Shown: in pieces, positions 30,001 through 45,000 of the stretch
Layout of the letters: every line of letters starts with the position of its first letter
Position numbering within the stretch: position 1 is the first letter of the stretch
Assembly: GCA_963730935.1 (NCBI GenBank)
Contig: CAVSTP010000004.1
Location: 352,001 to 416,000, forward strand
DNA length: 64,000 bases
Origin: an uncultured Nitrospiraceae bacterium
GTDB lineage: Bacteria > Nitrospirota > Nitrospiria > Nitrospirales > Nitrospiraceae
Direction of reading: 5' to 3'
Program-made: the position numbers

Positions 30001-33000
30001 AGCTTGAGTGTGACGTATGCCTCCCCGGGTGCGAACGTTGTGATTCAAGGCAGTGGTTTCACCAATAGAGTCGGGCATGTCCTGATGTCGACGACGAACG
30101 CAGCGGTGCAGCCGGAGGCGAAGGTGGTTCAAAACGCTTCAGGACCCATTTGGTCCGACACGCTCATCGAGGTCACTGTGCCGGAACTTACCGGCGTCAC
30201 CGTGTTCAACTCGAATTTGTTCGTCGTTGTAGAAGGCGATCCAGCTACCGGTCCACTGATCAGCAATTGGGCTCCGTTCCTATTTACCCCCCGGCAACAG
30301 ACGAGGGTGTTCTCGATGGTGTCACCGATCGATCATCGTCTTGCAACCTCGACTGGTCCTAGCGAACTGGGCGGATTCGGGACTGAGGGAGGGGTGGCTG
30401 GCGAAGACATCAATCACAGCAGGATCGTCGCCACTCTTTTTTTCAATCCCGATATCTTTTTCGGGCACGATGGGCATGACCGGTTCTATGAAAATACCAC
30501 GCTGCAGAACGGCTGGAGAGTGACCTGCGTCGAGGTCATCCCATTTGATCTACACAATTGCCGTCCCAACAATAATACCGTCTATGGCATCCCTCCAGGG
30601 ACAGGGGCGTACATCTACAGCGTGAACCAGAATGCCGGGCCCATAAGGCTCGACGTCAGATGGTGGTTCGACGCATTCGTAATGTTCACGAGCTACAAGT
30701 ATGTCTTTGTTATCAGGGGACCCGAAAATGTACCGGACGGGCTCTTATGCCATACGGTGGCCGCTTGCAGCGCCCCATGACCATCAGCTGATGGGTTAGC
30801 AGCGCCGAACCATGAGAGAACTATTCGCTGAATGGATCGTAGGGACATTCGTGCACCTGGAGGAATCATGAACCGCAACTTCTATCGGGAATGGCTCATT
30901 GCAGCACTGCTTGTAGCGGGATGCACTGGAAACGAACCCGTCATCGATCCAAGTCCAAACGGAGTCGAGAGCCGCGGCGTGCCGAAGACGCAGCGTCCGG
31001 TGAAGCCGGGGATACAGGAGCAACCAGGTGCCAACCTCAAATCGCCCACTTTTCCACAAAAATTCGAGGTGCAAGGCCCTGAAGTAGACTCCTTCGGGTT
31101 TGCCGTGACACAGCCAGGTCCAATCAACGTCGATGTGCAGGCGCAGGGTGCGCCACTGCTTGTGACACTGCAATCAGCCGGCGGCAAGCCAATCACGCAG
31201 ACTGCGACAGGCGGGCTGCGAATGAGTTACAACGTCACGCCGCAGGATGTGCAACGCAGTGTGTTCTGGGTGGTGCAATTCCGCTTGGCACAGCCAATAC
31301 CGCCGCTGCAGGGCGGTCGCGCAACCGGAACCGTGAACGTGCAATACCCGCCAGTCGATCAAGCGGCAGCTCAGCAGGCCGCGCAAACACAGCTCCGGCC
31401 GCCAACTCAACAGGAACTCGACCAGGCACGCGCACAAGGGGAGGCGCAGGTGACCGAAATCATCAGCGCCAGGAAGGCGCAGTTTGCCCAGGATCAAGAA
31501 CGCCGCTTTCAGTCGGACCGGGCCAGAGTGCAGCCGTTGCTTGATCGCATGAGCGCCGGGACACCAGGACAGGTGCGGTCTCGCGGTCTCGATGAGAAGG
31601 AGCCATCAGCCATTGAGCCGGCACAATCTAGCGAAGAGATTACCTCGCGGGCGATTCCAGACAAGCAAGTACTCCAATCATCCAAGCAACAAACCATCTC
31701 ACAGCAGAACTCCGGAAAGATGTCGGGCATCCTACCTCCGAGTCCGCCACAAATTACCTCATTGAGCGAAACCAGTGGTGGCCCGAAAAAGACGATCATC
31801 ATCAACGGGACTGGCTTCAGCACGGCTCAGGGTCAAGTCTATTTCACTGCGCCACCTGACCGAACATTCTCGGCGACCATCACCAATTGGACGGATACGG
31901 GTATCGGGATTGAAATCCCGAACGTGACGGGCGTCATGCCTTATCAGGCGAATCTCTATGTGCAACGCGGCCAGGACAGGAGCAATACCGTTCTCTTTAG
32001 TTATGTCCCGAGGCCGGAGTTAAGGACTATCCGAAGCATGACAGACGATAGGCGCCACAGTGGAACCGTCTTGACCAACTATCTGGCTGGGCCGGGAAAC
32101 AAGATGATGCATGTTCGAATACCTGGCATTCCTTTCAGCGAGTTTGCTGGAGAGAAGGGGAATGACGAGTACTTTCTGAGAACTCAATTGAAGAATGGCT
32201 GGACGGTGGCTGGAGCTACAATGCTCAAGAATCCGGTCAACGTCACGGTGAGCGCGGCACAGGCCGGAACGTATCAGTGGCTAGGCGACGGGTACATCCA
32301 GGAGCAGGGCACTGGCTCTAACCCGTACCTCAATGTCAGGTGGTGGGTAAACGCCTTCACGCCATTTACCATCTACTATTTCCTGATCGATATCGTCGGT
32401 CCGGAAGGGATTCCGGACGGCGTGGTGATTCCGTAGCCTAGCTTGTTCGGCGGCCTGTGGGAGGAAGACGATGAAATTTCATGGAATCTCACTCTTGCTC
32501 ATTTTCACGGTCCTTTGGCTGCCTGCAGCCAGTATTGCCGGCGATGTTGCACAGTCGCCGGCCACTCAAGGGACGCAGCCGCAAAGTGGTTCACCGGCTT
32601 CAAAAGAAAAGACTGCCAAGAAGCCTAATCAAGATGACGTAAAATCCCGCGGTCTGTTCAAAAAGAAGAAAAAGAAACAGAAAGGGGGCTCGGCAGCCCA
32701 TTCACAGCCTTCGGAAAAGACAGATTCGCCGACACAGTAGTTGGAACGTGAACAAGTCCACGATGAGCCGCCTACACATGACCGGGGAACAAGACGAGAA
32801 TCATCACATTGGTATGGAGGATGTATGAAGCGAACAGGGCTTGTTCTTCTGCTCATGGTGGGCACATCCGTCATGTGTGGATTGCCTGCACATGCCGCGC
32901 CGGAATTTGCCGTCTCGGTCGCGGGGCAGATTCAAGGGAAGTTTAAGGGCGAGGGGAGGAAGGGATTCGAGGACAAAATCATGGGGCTGAGCTTCGATCA

Positions 33001-42000: not shown

Positions 42001-45000
42001 GACTTTGCCTGGAGTCAACGTAATCTGCTCGCAGTACATCTCGACCTTGACGCGCCTGATGGTGTCGCTGGCGCTTGTTGCCCTGTCAGGAGAGAATCCG
42101 AAAATCCCCAGGTGCTGGAACGTCACGGTCAGGAGTGTGCCTTTCATGGTTGGATCCAGAAGTTCCAACGTCCCGACTCGCTCGTTTTGCTCTCCGGAAT
42201 TGCCTTTGAGCACCATATCTTGGAACCAGGAGTAAAACGTACCGGCTGATGCTTCACCGACATAGAGACTCAGGTTCGGAAACTCCAGCTTGCCGGGTTC
42301 CTTGACAAAATCACGTATTTGGCCAAGAGGATCCTGCACGACCTTCTGCTTGATCGTGAAGGCGTCGATCTTGCTGACTCTGCTACAGTCGAGGCCTGGA
42401 ATCGTCAGTTTGAAATTCGCCGTCAGCCAGCCTTTCGTTCTCTTGGCGAGCAACCCGGACACATCGTTCCCTTTGCCCGACAGCAGTGTCGTAAATTCCG
42501 GAGCGAATTTCACGGTGAGATGTCCGGGGTCTTTCGAACTAGCATCGAAGGCCGGAAAGGCGATTTCGGAGATCACGGCGTTGTTGAACTGCAACCGGCT
42601 TTGCTCCTTGCGATTGAAGTCCGCGGTAATAAGTGCGCCGGTTTTTCTTAATGGAGTCATGTTGAGCGCGCTGTTCACCCAATCGAAAAGCGGTTTGGGC
42701 ATGACGGGATCGCACTCGATGGCGATCTCCTCGAACCTTGGCTGACCGATGTGTTTTTTGACGAAAGGTGCTGTCGGCTCAGCGATCACATCGGCTTTTG
42801 GAAAGCCACCCTCGGCCGCGTTCAGCGTCTCGACGATCTGTCCGTCGAGTTCGAGCAGGAACCCTCCGACGGCATAGTTGCGCTGCAGGGCCGCGTGGGT
42901 GAGCCCAGGCCTGAGACCGGGAATTCCGAAAACCGCCATGCCGCCCGCCAAGAGCCCTGCACGAGTCAAGAATTCCCGGCGCGAAGGCGGACCGTCTTGC
43001 GATTGCCCGTTATCCATGAAAGTCCCTCCGTGAAGTTTATGCCCACGTGTCTTAGCTCGAACGAATACCTCTGGCGGTTCGATTGCCCGTTCCTACTTTG
43101 TCCAGATCCTCATTTCCGCTACTCGATTCTCTAATCGTGCGGTGGAATCGTCACCGTGGTCAGCGGACTCGTCCTGGTGCCTGGAACGAGTTTCCCGATA
43201 CCTCTCATGGACATGTGGTCGTCAGCCTGGTGTAGAGCTCATCCAGATTGATGCGGTCCGTTCGATCGTCGGCGAGGACGGTTTGGCCGGTAGCCAACTT
43301 AATTTCCTTGGACCAGCCTCTGGGCACGTTTCCATGACGGTACCCGCGCGCTTTCGCATCGGCCGCGTAGCGGTTGCGAAGATATTTTGTGCTGAAATTT
43401 CCGAGATTGCTGAAATAGTGCGCGGTGAGGTGCGCGGGATCGAGTGCCATCTCGCCGACGTATGAAGGACCGTCGTCCTGATCGTCCCATCCCCAGGGCG
43501 GGTGCGGCGAGTCGGTCGAACACTCGACGGTCACCCCGTTGCCGCAGCCCCCGCCCTTATCGCCTTTGAAGGCTCCCCACCGTGCGAAGGTCTGGGCCTG
43601 GTCCCGTGATAATGTAGCCTCGCTGAGTTGCTGCTGCCAGAGTCCATTGGACGCAAAAAAGTCGATCAGCATGTAGTCCACCTGCCGGTCGTTTCCAGAT
43701 TGCGGGATCTCGGCCCTACTTCTTGAAGGAAAGTAGATGATGCCGTCCTCATTCGGCTTGCCGTGGAAATCAGAGGTGAAGGGAAAAGCTTTGAGCCCAT
43801 GTCCTTTGGCCTGCTGCACAGTCAACGGATGCCACGCACCATCATGCTGCTGTAGGGTAAGCGTCCCGTCGATGTTTTCGTGGCCGTTTTGAAGTTGGCT
43901 GCCGGCAGGGACGAACGAATAGAAATCGTTGTGGAAGACCGTCACCATTCCTTCAAGGCGCCCGTACGGGGTTCCGTCCTTTCGGACGATCGTCAACTGG
44001 CCTTCCATGTCGTTCTCATGTTCCTGATCGAAGCTGGAATCGGTCCAATCGCGTGGATGAAAAAATCCATAGGCGATGAACCAGTGGGTGCAGGTTTCCA
44101 CAACCGAATAATACGCGTGGGCGGCCAACGGGAACCTGGTGAGATTTTCCCAGTTGTCGGTGGCGATCATGTTCCCGTCATAATCGAATCGAGTAATGTA
44201 ATCGGCCCGATAGTTCGTGCTGTCCGTATCCTGATAATGGATGGGAGCGTAGCGGTAGGCGAGATCATAATCGGTCGGTCCCCGAATACCCACGACCGGC
44301 GCCTGCTTCAGTACGGCTAACTGAATCTGCGAGGCGGAAAGGAGCGCGGGGTTCACGCCGCGTGCGCGGGTTCCGGAAAGAGATCCTACGGCATCCAACG
44401 CCCGTCCTTCCGGCAGCACAACCACGGCGTGGACAAGATCCATGTTCTCGTCCGGCACCGCAAGGGCGATGGGTTGATCGATCCTTTCATCATGCTTCAC
44501 GGTCTGGGCCTCGAGCGCAATTGAAGCCTGCCCCTGGGCGGTCAGCGTGATCTGGGAGGTCTGAGACGTGTCAGCCGTATACGTGCCGGCCTCCACGACG
44601 ACATCCGTGCCGTCCGGTGCCAGAAAATGAACCCGCCGCTCCAGAGTGAGGGAAGGCATTGTGGGTATACCTCTCGCCGACTCAGAGGCGACCTTCGCAT
44701 CGGAGTGAGTAGGGGGTGCCTGTTCAGTAGTTTCCGGAACCACAGGCTCCTCGGCTAGACCGACCCCCGGCATAAGGAGCCACATCATGACTAACGCCAG
44801 GCTGCAACGCAGCCTCATACGGGAAAGATTCATCACAGCTCGTCCTCCATTTGCAATCAGCATCGATTGAGATGCCTGATCGTTGGTCCTCGTCACGGGA
44901 AAACCAGCTCTCCAGTGAAGGCCCCGGCGTTTGTCGTACCGGCTATTTGGTCTCACTGGGCTTTTCTACTTGCTCTGTTGCCATGCCTTCAGAAGGATCA

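Follow-up and report, generated by a model that had tools for sequence, protein, structure and literature searches.

In the T6SS, parts are assembled in the cytoplasm and fired by a sheath. Homologues of two such parts, Hcp (PF05638) and VgrG (TIGR03361, with Phage_GPD, Phage_base_V and a beta-helix), are encoded side by side in DNA from an uncultured Nitrospiraceae bacterium (GCA_963730935.1, contig CAVSTP010000004.1, positions 352,001 to 416,000; this whole stretch of 64,000 nucleotides is the window, and coordinates are counted from its first nucleotide). Unlike their T6SS counterparts, these proteins carry Sec leaders, the genome has no TssB/C, TssE/F/K, TssM or PAAR, and this clade of VgrG is uncoupled from TssC in relatives. 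The locus resembles eCIS (AFP, PVC, AlgoCIS) in the single tube domains of the protein g02616, in a weak CIS5 tube-adaptor match (NCBIfam) and in its VgrG-like spike, but it has no linked sheath, gp25, Baseplate_J or AAA+ ATPase, and assembly here would be extracytoplasmic. With the tails of T5 (pb6), DT57C and P74-26 and with F-type tailocins it shares the duplicated tube fold of g02616 and its modelled trimeric, pseudo-hexameric ring, a gp27-like hub (here VgrG) and the lack of need for a sheath. In contrast to these, every part here has an export leader, the locus is not in a prophage, and it contains no recognisable gene for a tape-measure, terminator, distal tail protein or chaperone, or for lysis.

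The genome (4.05 Mb, 6 contigs, 99.89% complete) was searched with profiles for sheath and baseplate machinery. Genome-wide, VipB, TssF, PAAR, TssK, IcmF-related and Baseplate_J profiles gave 0 matches each, and the best values for Phage_sheath_1, GPW_gp25 and VipA were only E 0.23, 0.038 and 0.034 (the last below cut-off). Hcp, GPD and gp19 matches were restricted to this locus. An earlier note on this DNA had reported a genome without T6SS sheath, phage sheath, gp25 or Baseplate_J, and no match above cut-off was found that would alter this.

Its report of leader-bearing VgrG in 19 other Nitrospirales genomes was likewise reproduced among the 401 searched (49-63% identity). TssC was present in 1 of these 19 and in 21 of 24 genomes with canonical VgrG, the carriers being related genomes and not independent samples. 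A Phage_sheath_1 match was found elsewhere in the genome in 10 of the 19 (7 of these above cut-off), and 9 had neither TssC nor Phage_sheath_1. The description "no contractile sheath" therefore holds for the present genome and 9 of the 19 other carriers but not for the remaining 10. In genome G087, an ordinary single-domain gp19-like ORF lies approximately 0.3 kb from a sheath gene, and the Tat-type tandem protein is approximately 1.1 Mb away. Sequence comparison thus supports T6SS-independence of the leader-bearing set well.

If these genes were orphans left over from a lost T6SS, or from a prophage or eCIS tail, with mis-called starts, their products would be cytoplasmic and functionless. 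The VgrG clade is absent from 20 same-genus genomes (the sole VgrG match, in one of them, is a weak fragment of 37% identity), which fits a recently acquired or decaying island; VgrG is truncated in one related locus, and several tube-protein copies in relatives are interrupted by stop codons. Against decay, open frames and leaders are conserved at 49 to 96% identity in at least three families, Shine-Dalgarno (SD) sites stand ahead of the leader ATGs, the twin arginines of the tube protein are invariant, the leader clade is anti-correlated with TssC, and PHROG searches found no prophage genes in the island. Since the core recurs in several genera, it is not an orphan T6SS remnant, as had been argued before, and we consider decay extremely improbable.

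Leaders were called by eye and with a hydropathy script. HcpA (32825..33355, plus strand; Pfam T6SS_HCP, E 9.5e-14, match beginning at residue 38 of 176) has the Sec-type leader MKRTGLVLLLMVGTSVMCGLPAHA followed by APEF, and in 8/8 orthologues from related loci a leader with an A-x-A end precedes APEF or QEF. VgrG (34426..36483, plus strand) comprises a gp27-like hub, an OB domain and a C-terminal beta-helix behind the Sec-type leader MRPVLSYVCLSMLLIPGIALA, followed by GANP. Phage_GPD (E 1.2e-59) was matched from residue 51 of the 695-aa ORF 34396-36483, or residue 41 counted from the ATG at 34426, with Phage_base_V at E 2.4e-15 (Pfam) and TIGR03361 at 346 bits (NCBIfam). The second Hcp, HcpB (36505..37062, minus strand; ORF 36505-37077; T6SS_HCP, E 1.6e-21, match beginning at residue 34), has the Sec-type leader MKRALLTLVCTIVWSFVAVQVSFG. 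After predicted cleavage it begins AVDGFLLIQGLQGES, the starting motif of leaderless Hcps of about 160 aa. A leader was present in 6/6 HcpB orthologues from fetched loci, in 14/14 locus Hcps (HcpA and HcpB orthologues together) and, in an exhaustive search, in at least 66 of 98 full-length single-domain relatives. Leader-bearing Hcps are common in metagenomes, far beyond this type of locus.

All 15 VgrG genes in fetched loci have a leader. Of the 120 VgrG homologues listed, 95 carry the leader in full, and in 7 it is cut or weaker; in 9 the N-terminus is missing or unmatched by the leader pattern, and the 9 most distant (29-32% identity) are canonical, with no hydrophobic stretch. The motif xN[P/..] stands directly ahead of the VgrG core in 96 of them. 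This agrees with the earlier statement that most homologues are leader-bearing and the 9 most distant leaderless. The leader ATGs of HcpA, VgrG, HcpB, g02612, g02616, p97 and p583 are preceded, at a distance of 6-10 nt, by GGAGG-like sites. Nearly all homologues have small residues at -3/-1 after the h-region (A-x-A; for example AHA before A, ALA before G or SFG before A). The assignment of Sec leaders to the Hcps and VgrG, and of a Tat leader to g02616, is upheld by these SD-preceded ATGs and by conservation in relatives; export of the Hcps, VgrG and tube protein is thus well supported, and their leaders are probably cleaved. Uncleaved signal anchors would instead keep the proteins attached to the inner membrane on its outer face, where they would be parts of an envelope complex and not a free tube or spike. 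Some leaders are long, with strongly hydrophobic h-regions, as anchors would be; we nevertheless judge this improbable, given the -3/-1 residues, the HcpB sequence past the cleavage site and the hindrance to ring stacking that an N-terminal tether would bring.

Between HcpA and VgrG lies a CxxCxxCC protein (PF03692; 33368..34093, plus strand; Pfam E 1.2e-11), which has no leader and on its sequence appears to be the sole clearly cytoplasmic member. It is kept in this position in family f1 loci and is syntenic in eight related loci. It is followed by p97 (34077..34370, plus strand; called from its ORF and SD site), a small protein whose N-terminus has a hydrophobic stretch and which contains low-complexity sequence rich in QSK and Pro; it has no family match in Pfam or NCBIfam, and its tblastn matches adjoin VgrG in six related loci. 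Two RNA libraries from one study contained four contigs (151-172 nt) identical to HcpA, CxxC and VgrG, a weak hint of expression that cannot prove transcription.

The tube protein g02616 (41995..43017, minus strand) has a twin-arginine leader (SRREFLTRAG) and two tube-like stretches: Phage_T4_gp19 was matched at residues 200-294 (Pfam, E 3.7e-9) and TIGR02241 in the N-terminal half at residues 83-162 (NCBIfam). The leader scored 16.5 bits against the NCBIfam Tat model, just below the 16.7 cut-off, and the genome has two copies of TatC. RR is invariant in 12/12 tube proteins and is found in 81 of 120 homologues; those that lack it include approximately 18 leaderless "phage tail-like" proteins of about 300-360 aa (mostly 303-315) and 7 with Sec-like leaders. 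The AF2 model (pLDDT 76.8) has two tube units. Its best full-length Foldseek matches are tandem tail tube proteins, among them T5 pb6 (9iny_A, E 1.6e-9) and those of DT57C, SH-Ab15497 (TM 0.60) and P74-26; the single domains resemble the CIS tube proteins 7aeb_Y, 7b5h and 6rao. A homotrimer model reached an ipSAE of 0.63, against 0.00 for the best control; in calibration, 20 of 30 solved pairs reached the mark, as did 1 of 23 single chains. The score of the trimer may stem from its resemblance to T5-type tubes already solved. At least 85% of contacts agreed between runs, partner pLDDT was at least 82, and contacts ran head-to-tail from domain 1 to domain 2. For g02616 these results thus predict a trimeric ring and the fold of the tandem tail tube proteins found in non-contractile phages (T5 pb6); on these models its closest structural relatives are non-contractile tandem tube proteins, not T4 gp19, so a missing sheath is expected and not odd.

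This fold, and the naming of leaderless relatives of 303-315 aa as "phage tail-like protein", would also suit an F-type, non-contractile tailocin-like particle that forms inside the cytoplasm and leaves the cell by lysis, its "leaders" serving another purpose. We think this very unlikely: Pfam, NCBIfam and PHROG searches of the island revealed no family of holins, endolysins, tape-measures, terminators or chaperones, and Sec substrates, which cross the membrane in an unfolded state, can therefore take no part in cytoplasmic assembly.

The most constant partner of the tube protein is the mini-VgrG-like g02614 (40821..41630, minus strand), whose homologues adjoin it in 14 of 21 related stretches. 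This "needle" resembles the Francisella-type mini VgrG and the T4 gp5 beta-helix needle: its VgrG-C-terminus-like beta-helix matched T6SS_TssI_Fran at residues 176-232 (NCBIfam, E 1.6e-4), and split-off ORFs in family f2 matched Gp5_trimer_C. It differs from both in having a Sec leader, a processing motif (ADEVSERAVP), a Gly/Ala-rich linker and a coiled coil in front of the helix.

The tube protein occurs in 18 of 20 leader-VgrG genomes (two have no full copy) and in 17 of 381 others. Five f2 loci have VgrG, tube protein and needle with no Hcp within 10 kb of VgrG, and complete same-genus genomes have tube protein and needle without VgrG or Hcp. The island is modular, not one fixed module. Of the "distinct T6SS-independent envelope tube-and-spike module" proposed in the earlier note, independence and recurrence stand and a fixed set does not; a tube and spike in the envelope may be supposed from the parts. 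The analysis identified nothing that would serve as outer-membrane channel, energy source, tape-measure, terminator or receptor-binding protein, and the three secretins in the genome all lie away from this locus.

The remaining island proteins are secreted and share an Arg-Gly/Ala motif, near secreted caspase-like peptidases. g02612 (37135..39015, minus strand; 626 aa) has a leader, an EDVTTRG motif, a Pro-rich linker and repeated beta-rich units, with no family in Pfam, NCBIfam or PHROG. g02613 (39061..40764, minus strand; 567 aa), with no family in Pfam or NCBIfam and no Atlas match, has homologues in six related loci; its conserved Cys pairs were counted as support for real leaders, and its homologue in f2 genomes is fused C-terminal to a shared N-terminal domain. 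That beta domain of approximately 100 aa, which is new, follows the leader of p583 (43205..44833, minus strand; AF2 pLDDT 87.9), ends in SGTRARG and precedes a C-terminal domain with Vps62/NPP1-like structural neighbours (Atlas leads). Its family numbers 31 further ORFs in 12 loci and occurs in 18 of 20 leader-VgrG genomes and 59 of 381 others; being present in those 59, it is not a dedicated VgrG adaptor. As in polymorphic toxin systems, the 31 neighbours join a conserved N-terminal domain to unrelated C-terminal domains (DUF6345, DUF928, beta-helix, helical or Vps62/NPP1-like). However, the N-terminal domain fits no known trafficking domain, it is also found in genomes without this VgrG, the genes here are not interspersed with small immunity-like ones, and no known toxin domain was found.

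A trypsin-like serine peptidase (44943..46454, minus strand; Pfam Trypsin, E 2e-27), a probable lipoprotein (LVSGC) with a VQERAV motif, adjoins the tube protein in four related loci. Beyond it are four more secreted proteins (46455..51110, minus strand; ORFs of 196, 441, 344 and 492 aa), three of which have [VI]QERG[VL] preceded by a leader or lipobox and an acidic/Pro-rich linker; their homologues adjoin the tube protein in same-genus genomes without VgrG. Directly upstream of HcpA are TIG1 and TIG2 (29134..32436, plus strand), paralogous secreted IPT/TIG-domain proteins (Pfam TIG, E 1.9e-3 and 1.4e-4) with VESRG motifs and homologues in six related loci. Three exported caspase-like (Peptidase_C14) proteins with a His/Cys dyad lie at 9488..23822 (Pfam, leaders and dyad motifs), one with DUF4384 and two with WD40 arrays. 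C14 occurs in 12 of 22 stretches, compared with 9 places genome-wide; these proteins are candidate processing enzymes that may belong to the system.

The exported proteins might form no common tube and spike; each could be a tail protein that was domesticated for a separate role outside the cytoplasm. Hcp rings could, for example, act in the periplasm as chaperones or as sponges for effectors that come in, VgrG or the needle could be an adhesin or scaffold at the surface, and secreted enzymes could be carried by the tube protein. The differing combinations of parts between genomes, the spread of leader-bearing Hcps outside this locus type and the failure of Pfam, NCBIfam and PHROG to reveal a baseplate, tape-measure or terminator suit such a reading. 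We hold it to be rather unlikely, as VgrG, tube protein and needle are strongly associated in both position and occurrence (18/20 against 17/381 genomes), the tube protein retains a ring-forming tandem architecture that models as a closed trimer, and leaders on three different tail families in the same loci are explained most simply if the proteins still cooperate.

An extracytoplasmic, sheath-less tail-like assembly is the reading that we consider, on balance, somewhat probable. Tail-like parts would be synthesised as precursors and leave the cytoplasm singly: HcpA, HcpB, VgrG and the g02614 needle by the Sec route, and the tandem tube protein, already folded, by the Tat route. In the periplasm or at the cell surface they would assemble as a non-contractile phage tail does, without sheath or baseplate: trimeric pseudo-hexameric rings of g02616 and hexameric rings of Hcp would sit on a trimeric VgrG hub/spike or on the needle. 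To these the island would add secreted proteins and lipoproteins with the common Arg-Gly/Ala processing motif, some also sharing the N-terminal beta domain ahead of variable C-terminal domains, as partners or cargo that may be freed by exported Arg-specific peptidases (caspase-like C14 and trypsin-like). We infer co-assembly, location and the link to cargo from the parts and their arrangement. Such an assembly would probably serve in antagonism or defence, as a device for puncturing or delivery at the surface or envelope. In this relative of nitrite oxidisers, exported spike and tube proteins with no sheath to fire them suggest a tail-like structure built outside the cytoplasm, which has not been described before.

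The island of genes for predicted exported proteins occupies 29-51 kb of the window, as judged by ORF translation and Pfam searches, and consists of two converging gene sets. The forward-strand set comprises the IPT/TIG-domain paralogues TIG1 and TIG2 (29134-30780 and 30832-32436), the Hcp homologue HcpA (32825-33355), a CxxCxxCC protein without a leader (33368-34093), the 97-aa low-complexity protein p97 (34077-34370) and VgrG (34426-36483). The reverse-strand set begins with the second Hcp homologue, HcpB (36505-37062), followed by g02612 and g02613, predicted to be secreted and without a family (37135-39015 and 39061-40764), and by the 'needle' g02614, in which a Gly/Ala-rich linker precedes a coiled coil and a beta-helix (40821-41630). 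The tandem tube protein g02616 (41995-43017), p583 (43205-44833) and a trypsin-like lipoprotein with four more secreted proteins, as far as 51110, complete the set. Elsewhere in the window an AMP-binding enzyme is split over two forward-strand ORFs at 7247-7969 and 8204-8842 (profile positions 18-179 and 297-384), a sign of a possible frameshift, deletion or assembly error.

Family membership was assigned with Pfam and NCBIfam. T6SS_HCP matched the two Hcps at E 9.5e-14 and E 1.6e-21. VgrG matched Phage_GPD (E 1.2e-59), Phage_base_V (E 2.4e-15) and TIGR03361 (346 bits, cut-off 186). Residues 200-294 of g02616 matched Phage_T4_gp19 (E 3.7e-9), and weaker tube-family matches covered both halves of the protein (TIGR02241, residues 83-162; CIS5 adaptor, residues 199-273). 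The two Hcps, the VgrG and the gp19-like tube protein named in the earlier note were thereby confirmed. A PHROGs search of the island returned matches for VgrG and HcpB only, and a search of the genome contigs for related loci returned a single close locus, L051. Two RNA libraries of one study, in which DNA carry-over is possible, contained four contigs of 151-172 nt that match the HcpA, CxxC and VgrG genes with full identity. The RNA runs (word shares 0.08 and 0.06) held nine short contigs, of which these four were identical to the window, too little for an expression level, a habitat or transcript ends.

Export leaders in the window proteins and their homologues were scored by eye and with a hydropathy script. 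The features of a Sec type I leader (basic n-region, hydrophobic h-region and A-x-A site) were found in both groups. GGAGG-like Shine-Dalgarno sites lie 6-10 nt 5' of the leader-including ATGs of HcpA, VgrG, HcpB, g02612, g02616, p97 and p583. A full basic/hydrophobic/A-x-A leader was present in 95 of 120 VgrG homologues and a cut or weaker one in 7; 9 were fragments or unmatched by the leader pattern. The 9 most distant homologues (29-32% identity) are canonical: they lack a hydrophobic stretch and begin some 20 residues ahead of the first conserved strand. Across the VgrG leaders the sequence varies freely while the hydrophobic character is kept, and the residues after cleavage ((A)GNPxxDAL...) are conserved, which is the behaviour expected of signal peptides. 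The alternative that these are membrane-anchored forms was considered quite unlikely. In the window and 21 stretches from other genomes, leaders were found in 8/8 HcpA-type, 6/6 HcpB-type and 15/15 VgrG genes. Predicted cleavage of HcpB at SFG|AVDGFLLIQGLQGES would leave the motif at which leaderless Hcps of about 160 aa start (MAxDxFLKIxGIxGES).

A twin-arginine leader is predicted for g02616, with SRREFLTRAG followed by LLAGGMAVFGIPGL...THA|A, which supplies the hydrophobic stretch and the A-x-A site. Both arginines are invariant in all 12 locus homologues, and 81 of 120 database homologues share an RR motif. The other 39 include approximately 13 N-terminal fragments, 7 proteins with Sec-like leaders, one 534-aa protein named a SAM-dependent methyltransferase by its source, and approximately 18 leaderless proteins of about 300-360 aa (mostly 303-315) with the source name 'phage tail-like'. 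NCBIfam TAT_signal_seq scored 16.5 bits on g02616, slightly under the cut-off of 16.7, and the genome has two tatC genes. The Shine-Dalgarno sites, the conservation among homologues and the invariant arginines bear out the Sec leaders proposed for Hcp and VgrG and the Tat leader proposed for g02616. Taken together, the sequences support the prediction that the tail-like proteins of the locus are made with conserved export signals.

Machinery of the T6SS and of contractile tails was searched for in the genome itself (4.05 Mb, 6 contigs, 99.89% complete). For the TssB/TssC sheath, VipB gave no match and VipA only E 0.034, below cut-off. For the baseplate, the families searched were TssF and TssK, which gave none, and GPW_gp25, which reached only E 0.038, again below cut-off. 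The membrane complex was represented in the search by the IcmF-related family (TssM), which gave no match; PAAR likewise gave none. For a phage-type sheath or baseplate, Phage_sheath_1 reached only E 0.23 (below cut-off) and Baseplate_J had no match. Hcp, GPD and gp19 matches in the genome were confined to this locus, and the Hcp and VgrG homologues all bear conserved N-terminal leaders, so that leaderless cytoplasmic forms were not found.

Among 401 Nitrospirales genomes, VgrG of the leader type was found in 19 others (49-63% identity, alignments from residues 1-19) and canonical VgrG in approximately 30 (28-37% identity, alignments from residue 29 or later). TssC was present in 1 of the 19 carriers of leader-type VgrG versus 21 of 24 genomes with canonical VgrG. 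The sole TssC-positive carrier, G166, also has a canonical VgrG beside TssC, on another contig. A phage-type sheath match was found in 10 of the 19 carriers (7 above cut-off), always on another contig or megabases from the locus; the statement that there is no sheath at all is therefore limited to the genome studied and 9 other carriers. Independence from the T6SS, as claimed earlier, is supported, since the machinery families searched have no match above cut-off in this genome and TssC is present in only one of the 19 carriers. The accompanying claim that a contractile sheath is lacking holds for this genome and 9 carriers and gives way to a sheath match elsewhere in the other 10. The tail-like proteins of the locus are thus supported as independent of T6SS and CIS machinery. 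Against this distribution, the explanation that they are remnants of a lost system was regarded as scarcely credible.

To compare gene content, the window proteins were searched by tblastn in the 20-kb surroundings of leader-type VgrG in 12 genomes. In loci of family f1 the HcpA-CxxC-p97-VgrG core is present, with p97 undetected in L040 and L050. In the five loci of family f2 (L042-L046) VgrG is about 540 aa long, Hcp is absent within 10 kb, and a small gene of its own, a few kb from VgrG, encodes the beta-helix (Gp5_trimer_C; L042:5277-5909, L043:18331-19080, L045:14796-15383). Over the 12 VgrG loci, HcpB was found in 4, the tube protein in 9, a g02614-type needle in 10 and g02613 in 5. In L055 (19334-19849, genome G176) the leader-type VgrG is reduced to query residues 5-109 joined to 433-502; it is apparently an internally deleted copy, beside an otherwise intact cluster of tube, needle and N-domain genes.

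A full-length tube protein was found in 35 of the 401 genomes: 18 of the 20 with leader-type VgrG (the genome studied included) and 17 of the 381 without. Two complete genomes of the same genus without any VgrG (G087 and G135) carry the tube protein, the trypsin-like peptidase and p344/p492-type genes together, in clusters without VgrG or Hcp, and the G087 cluster adds the needle and p441. CxxC-p97, the needle and the tube protein occur without VgrG in G315; G179 has HcpB, the tube protein and the needle. From these combinations the tandem tube protein and the needle are the most constant pair. The needle also weakly matches the Francisella mini-VgrG (NCBIfam, E 1.6e-4), and by analogy with gp27-gp5 the pair could form a second, minimal spike complex. 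The earlier note had described a distinct module; recurrence of the core in f1 loci upholds this in part, but the set is not fixed, given f2 loci without Hcp and the tube-needle pair without VgrG. Set beside the same recurrence and the same variation, an account of the tail-like proteins as domesticated independently of one another is possible, though doubtful.

In an AlphaFold model of g02616 (12-row alignment, mean pLDDT 76.8), the leader (residues 1-50) is disordered and precedes two successive beta-sandwich-plus-helix units. The best full-length Foldseek matches were tandem-domain tail tube proteins of non-contractile phages, namely T5 pb6 (9iny_A, E 1.6e-9; also 5ngj), DT57C (8hrg), SH-Ab15497 (8xan, TM 0.60) and P74-26 (8ed0), together with T5 tail-tip core proteins. 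Tube structures of CIS, AFP, PVC and T4, and Hcp, matched single g02616 domains only. Three copies of the mature protein were modelled as a closed head-to-tail ring with ipSAE 0.63 versus 0.00 for the best control, in calibration, 20 of 30 solved pairs reached the mark, as did 1 of 23 single chains. Contact agreement between trimer runs was at least 85% and partner pLDDT at least 82. The score may rest on likeness to solved T5-type tubes, and the model indicates that a ring-forming architecture is kept in g02616; it is not proof of assembly in the cell. By fold, structural matches and trimer model, g02616 is a predicted ring-forming tube protein of the kind found in sipho-type tails and F-type tailocins. 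Since it is a tube protein of the non-contractile type, the missing sheath is unsurprising. No match to tape-measure, terminator or assembly-chaperone families was found in the island (Pfam, NCBIfam, PHROGs); g02613 (567 aa, without a family match) is a candidate tape-measure protein. A tailocin released by lysis would share the tube fold, but the predicted leaders argue against cytoplasmic assembly, and this explanation was taken to be very improbable.

p583 is one of 32 related ORFs, spread over the window and 12 loci, with up to seven members around one VgrG. Each has a Sec leader, a conserved all-beta N-domain of about 100 aa (consensus ..VHFLxPxGSDVVVxxGxYxVE.AE.WLRL..), a flexible linker and one of several unrelated C-terminal domains of 240-750 aa, among them DUF6345, DUF928, a right-handed beta-helix, a g02613-like helical domain and, in most cases, no known domain. 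The linker ends in SG[IV]RxR[GA] in 25 of 27 aligned members. The N-domain was modelled with pLDDT 87.9, the linker being low. Foldseek found no fold relatives at E <= 1e-3, and the best VIA-align score was Z 4.3, to SH3-like halves; Pfam BACON_2 matched weakly (E 3e-4 to 9e-4). In the ESM Atlas, the C-terminal part of p583 (ORF residues 215-583) has Vps62-/NPP1-like neighbours (TM by query 0.46-0.53), ranking after hypothetical proteins without a name (TM 0.78). A membrane-acting C-terminal domain is possible on these modelled folds and is offered as a lead only. The Atlas returned no match for g02613.

The N-domain was found in 77 of the 401 genomes, comprising 18 of the 20 with leader-type VgrG and 59 of the 381 without. 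It is thus enriched beside leader-type VgrG, yet not dedicated to it, and a role as VgrG-specific cargo adaptor was abandoned on account of the 59 genomes. The conserved N-terminal region with variable C-terminal domains has the architecture of polymorphic toxin systems, but no known toxin domains or cognate immunity genes were recognised among the N-domain neighbours.

Many island proteins (window 29134-51110; loci L039-L059) carry the short motif [VI]-x-[E/S]-R-[G/A]-[VLIM](P) after their leader, lipobox or acidic/Pro-rich linker. It was found in TIG1 and TIG2, g02614, g02613 (RS variant), the trypsin-like protein, p441, p344 and p492, and in orthologues in other genera. The related SG[IV]RxR[GA] version closes the N-domain. 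A strict script found 18 leader-plus-motif ORFs genome-wide, 10 of them in a 30-kb stretch at 381-411 kb of contig 4. The motif is likely a processing or sorting site; a cut after the motif Arg would detach a lipoprotein from the lipid that anchors it.

Flanking the island are three caspase-like (Peptidase_C14) proteins, predicted to be exported, whose His/Cys dyad is intact (9488-11830(-), 15929-19951(+) and 20247-23822(+)). C14 was found in 12 of 22 stretches examined (window, L039, L041, L043, L044, L046-L049, L052, L058 and L059), clustered beside such islands and fused to DUF4384, Sel1 or long WD40 arrays. In the whole 4.05-Mb genome it occurs at only 9 places, five of them at 360-420 kb of contig 4. 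Orthocaspases are reported to cut after basic residues (PMC6426788). The motif would presumably be cut by the C14 peptidases or by the trypsin-like enzyme. The locus trypsin is absent from the 12 VgrG-centred loci L039-L050, which weakens it as a universal processing enzyme. In two f2 loci an autotransporter beta-domain protein (L043:4018-5406(-) and L044:15747-17039(+)) adjoins the Sel1-caspase gene, approximately 4-5 kb from VgrG.

Relatives beyond this clade were sought by an exhaustive HMMER search with HcpB, which returned 3606 proteins at E <= 1e-3. The best 150 of these and P0124, from a word-index search with HcpB that gave 4 matches, were examined (n = 151). There were 98 full-length single-domain proteins, with a leader in at least 66, a start at the core motif in 19, and 13 unclassified by the script, several visibly with leaders; most single-domain HcpB relatives in metagenomes thus bear a leader. 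A further 51 were of at least 300 aa, mostly multi-domain. Approximately 30 relatives of 1000-2164 aa contain six Hcp stretches each, and such proteins are the best-scoring HcpB relatives in 1.84 billion representatives (P0125-P0131, P0133, P0134, P0139, P0143 and others); by sequence they resemble 'hexamers' in a single chain. The LExRxLL motif typical of planctomycete secreted proteins was present at the N-terminus of 13 of the 51. One leader-bearing Hcp is from Methylomirabilota, and a twin-arginine leader is also carried by P0355, a tandem gp19-like protein named 'phage tail protein' that comes from an Actinomycetota MAG. Tail-tube proteins with predicted export are therefore no peculiarity of the Nitrospirales, nor, given the Tat leader on P0355, confined to diderm Nitrospirota, and the export principle may reach well beyond the Nitrospirales. 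Literature searches for leader-bearing Hcp/VgrG or multi-Hcp ('tandem Hcp') proteins found no paper, an absence claimed for these searches only.

In the mechanism favoured, the tail proteins of the locus would leave the cytoplasm by Sec or Tat, and their leaders would then be cleaved. In the periplasm or at the cell surface the mature proteins would form a tail-like structure of the non-contractile kind, without a sheath, in which VgrG or the needle is the spike and the rings are of tandem-tube protein and of Hcp; the processed secreted proteins of the island would act together with this structure. It may stay in the envelope, cross the outer membrane by polymerising or be shed. Neither an outer-membrane conduit or energy source nor a tape-measure or receptor-binding protein was identified for the locus, and the three secretins of the genome are all away from it. 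A bolder reading is of a previously unrecognised class of bacterial nanomachine, a phage-tail-derived tube and spike whose Sec/Tat-exported subunits would polymerise outside the cytoplasm, driven by the energy of folding and assembly and not by a sheath. The machine would pierce the outer membrane of its producer, the envelope of a neighbour or both, and carry secreted cargo freed by Arg-specific processing. This reading is tentative and, as a whole, rather unlikely. In drawing energy from folding and assembly, such a tube and spike would resemble pili and curli.

To our knowledge, every phage-tail-like machine described so far (T6SS, eCIS, R- and F-type tailocins) is built in the cytoplasm, and Hcp and VgrG without signal peptides are an accepted hallmark of the T6SS. 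At these loci three tail families (Hcp, VgrG and tandem tube) have acquired Sec or Tat leaders and shed any link to a sheath, which points to tail parts put to a different use in the cell envelope. Such genes carry source names including 'type VI secretion system tip protein' and 'tube protein Hcp'; because annotation pipelines label leader-bearing Hcp and VgrG genes as T6SS, a systematic mis-annotation is flagged. The analysis adds two uncharacterised features of Nitrospirales secreted proteins, the N-terminal beta domain and the Arg-Gly/Ala motif beside exported caspase-like peptidases, and offers concrete, testable targets.
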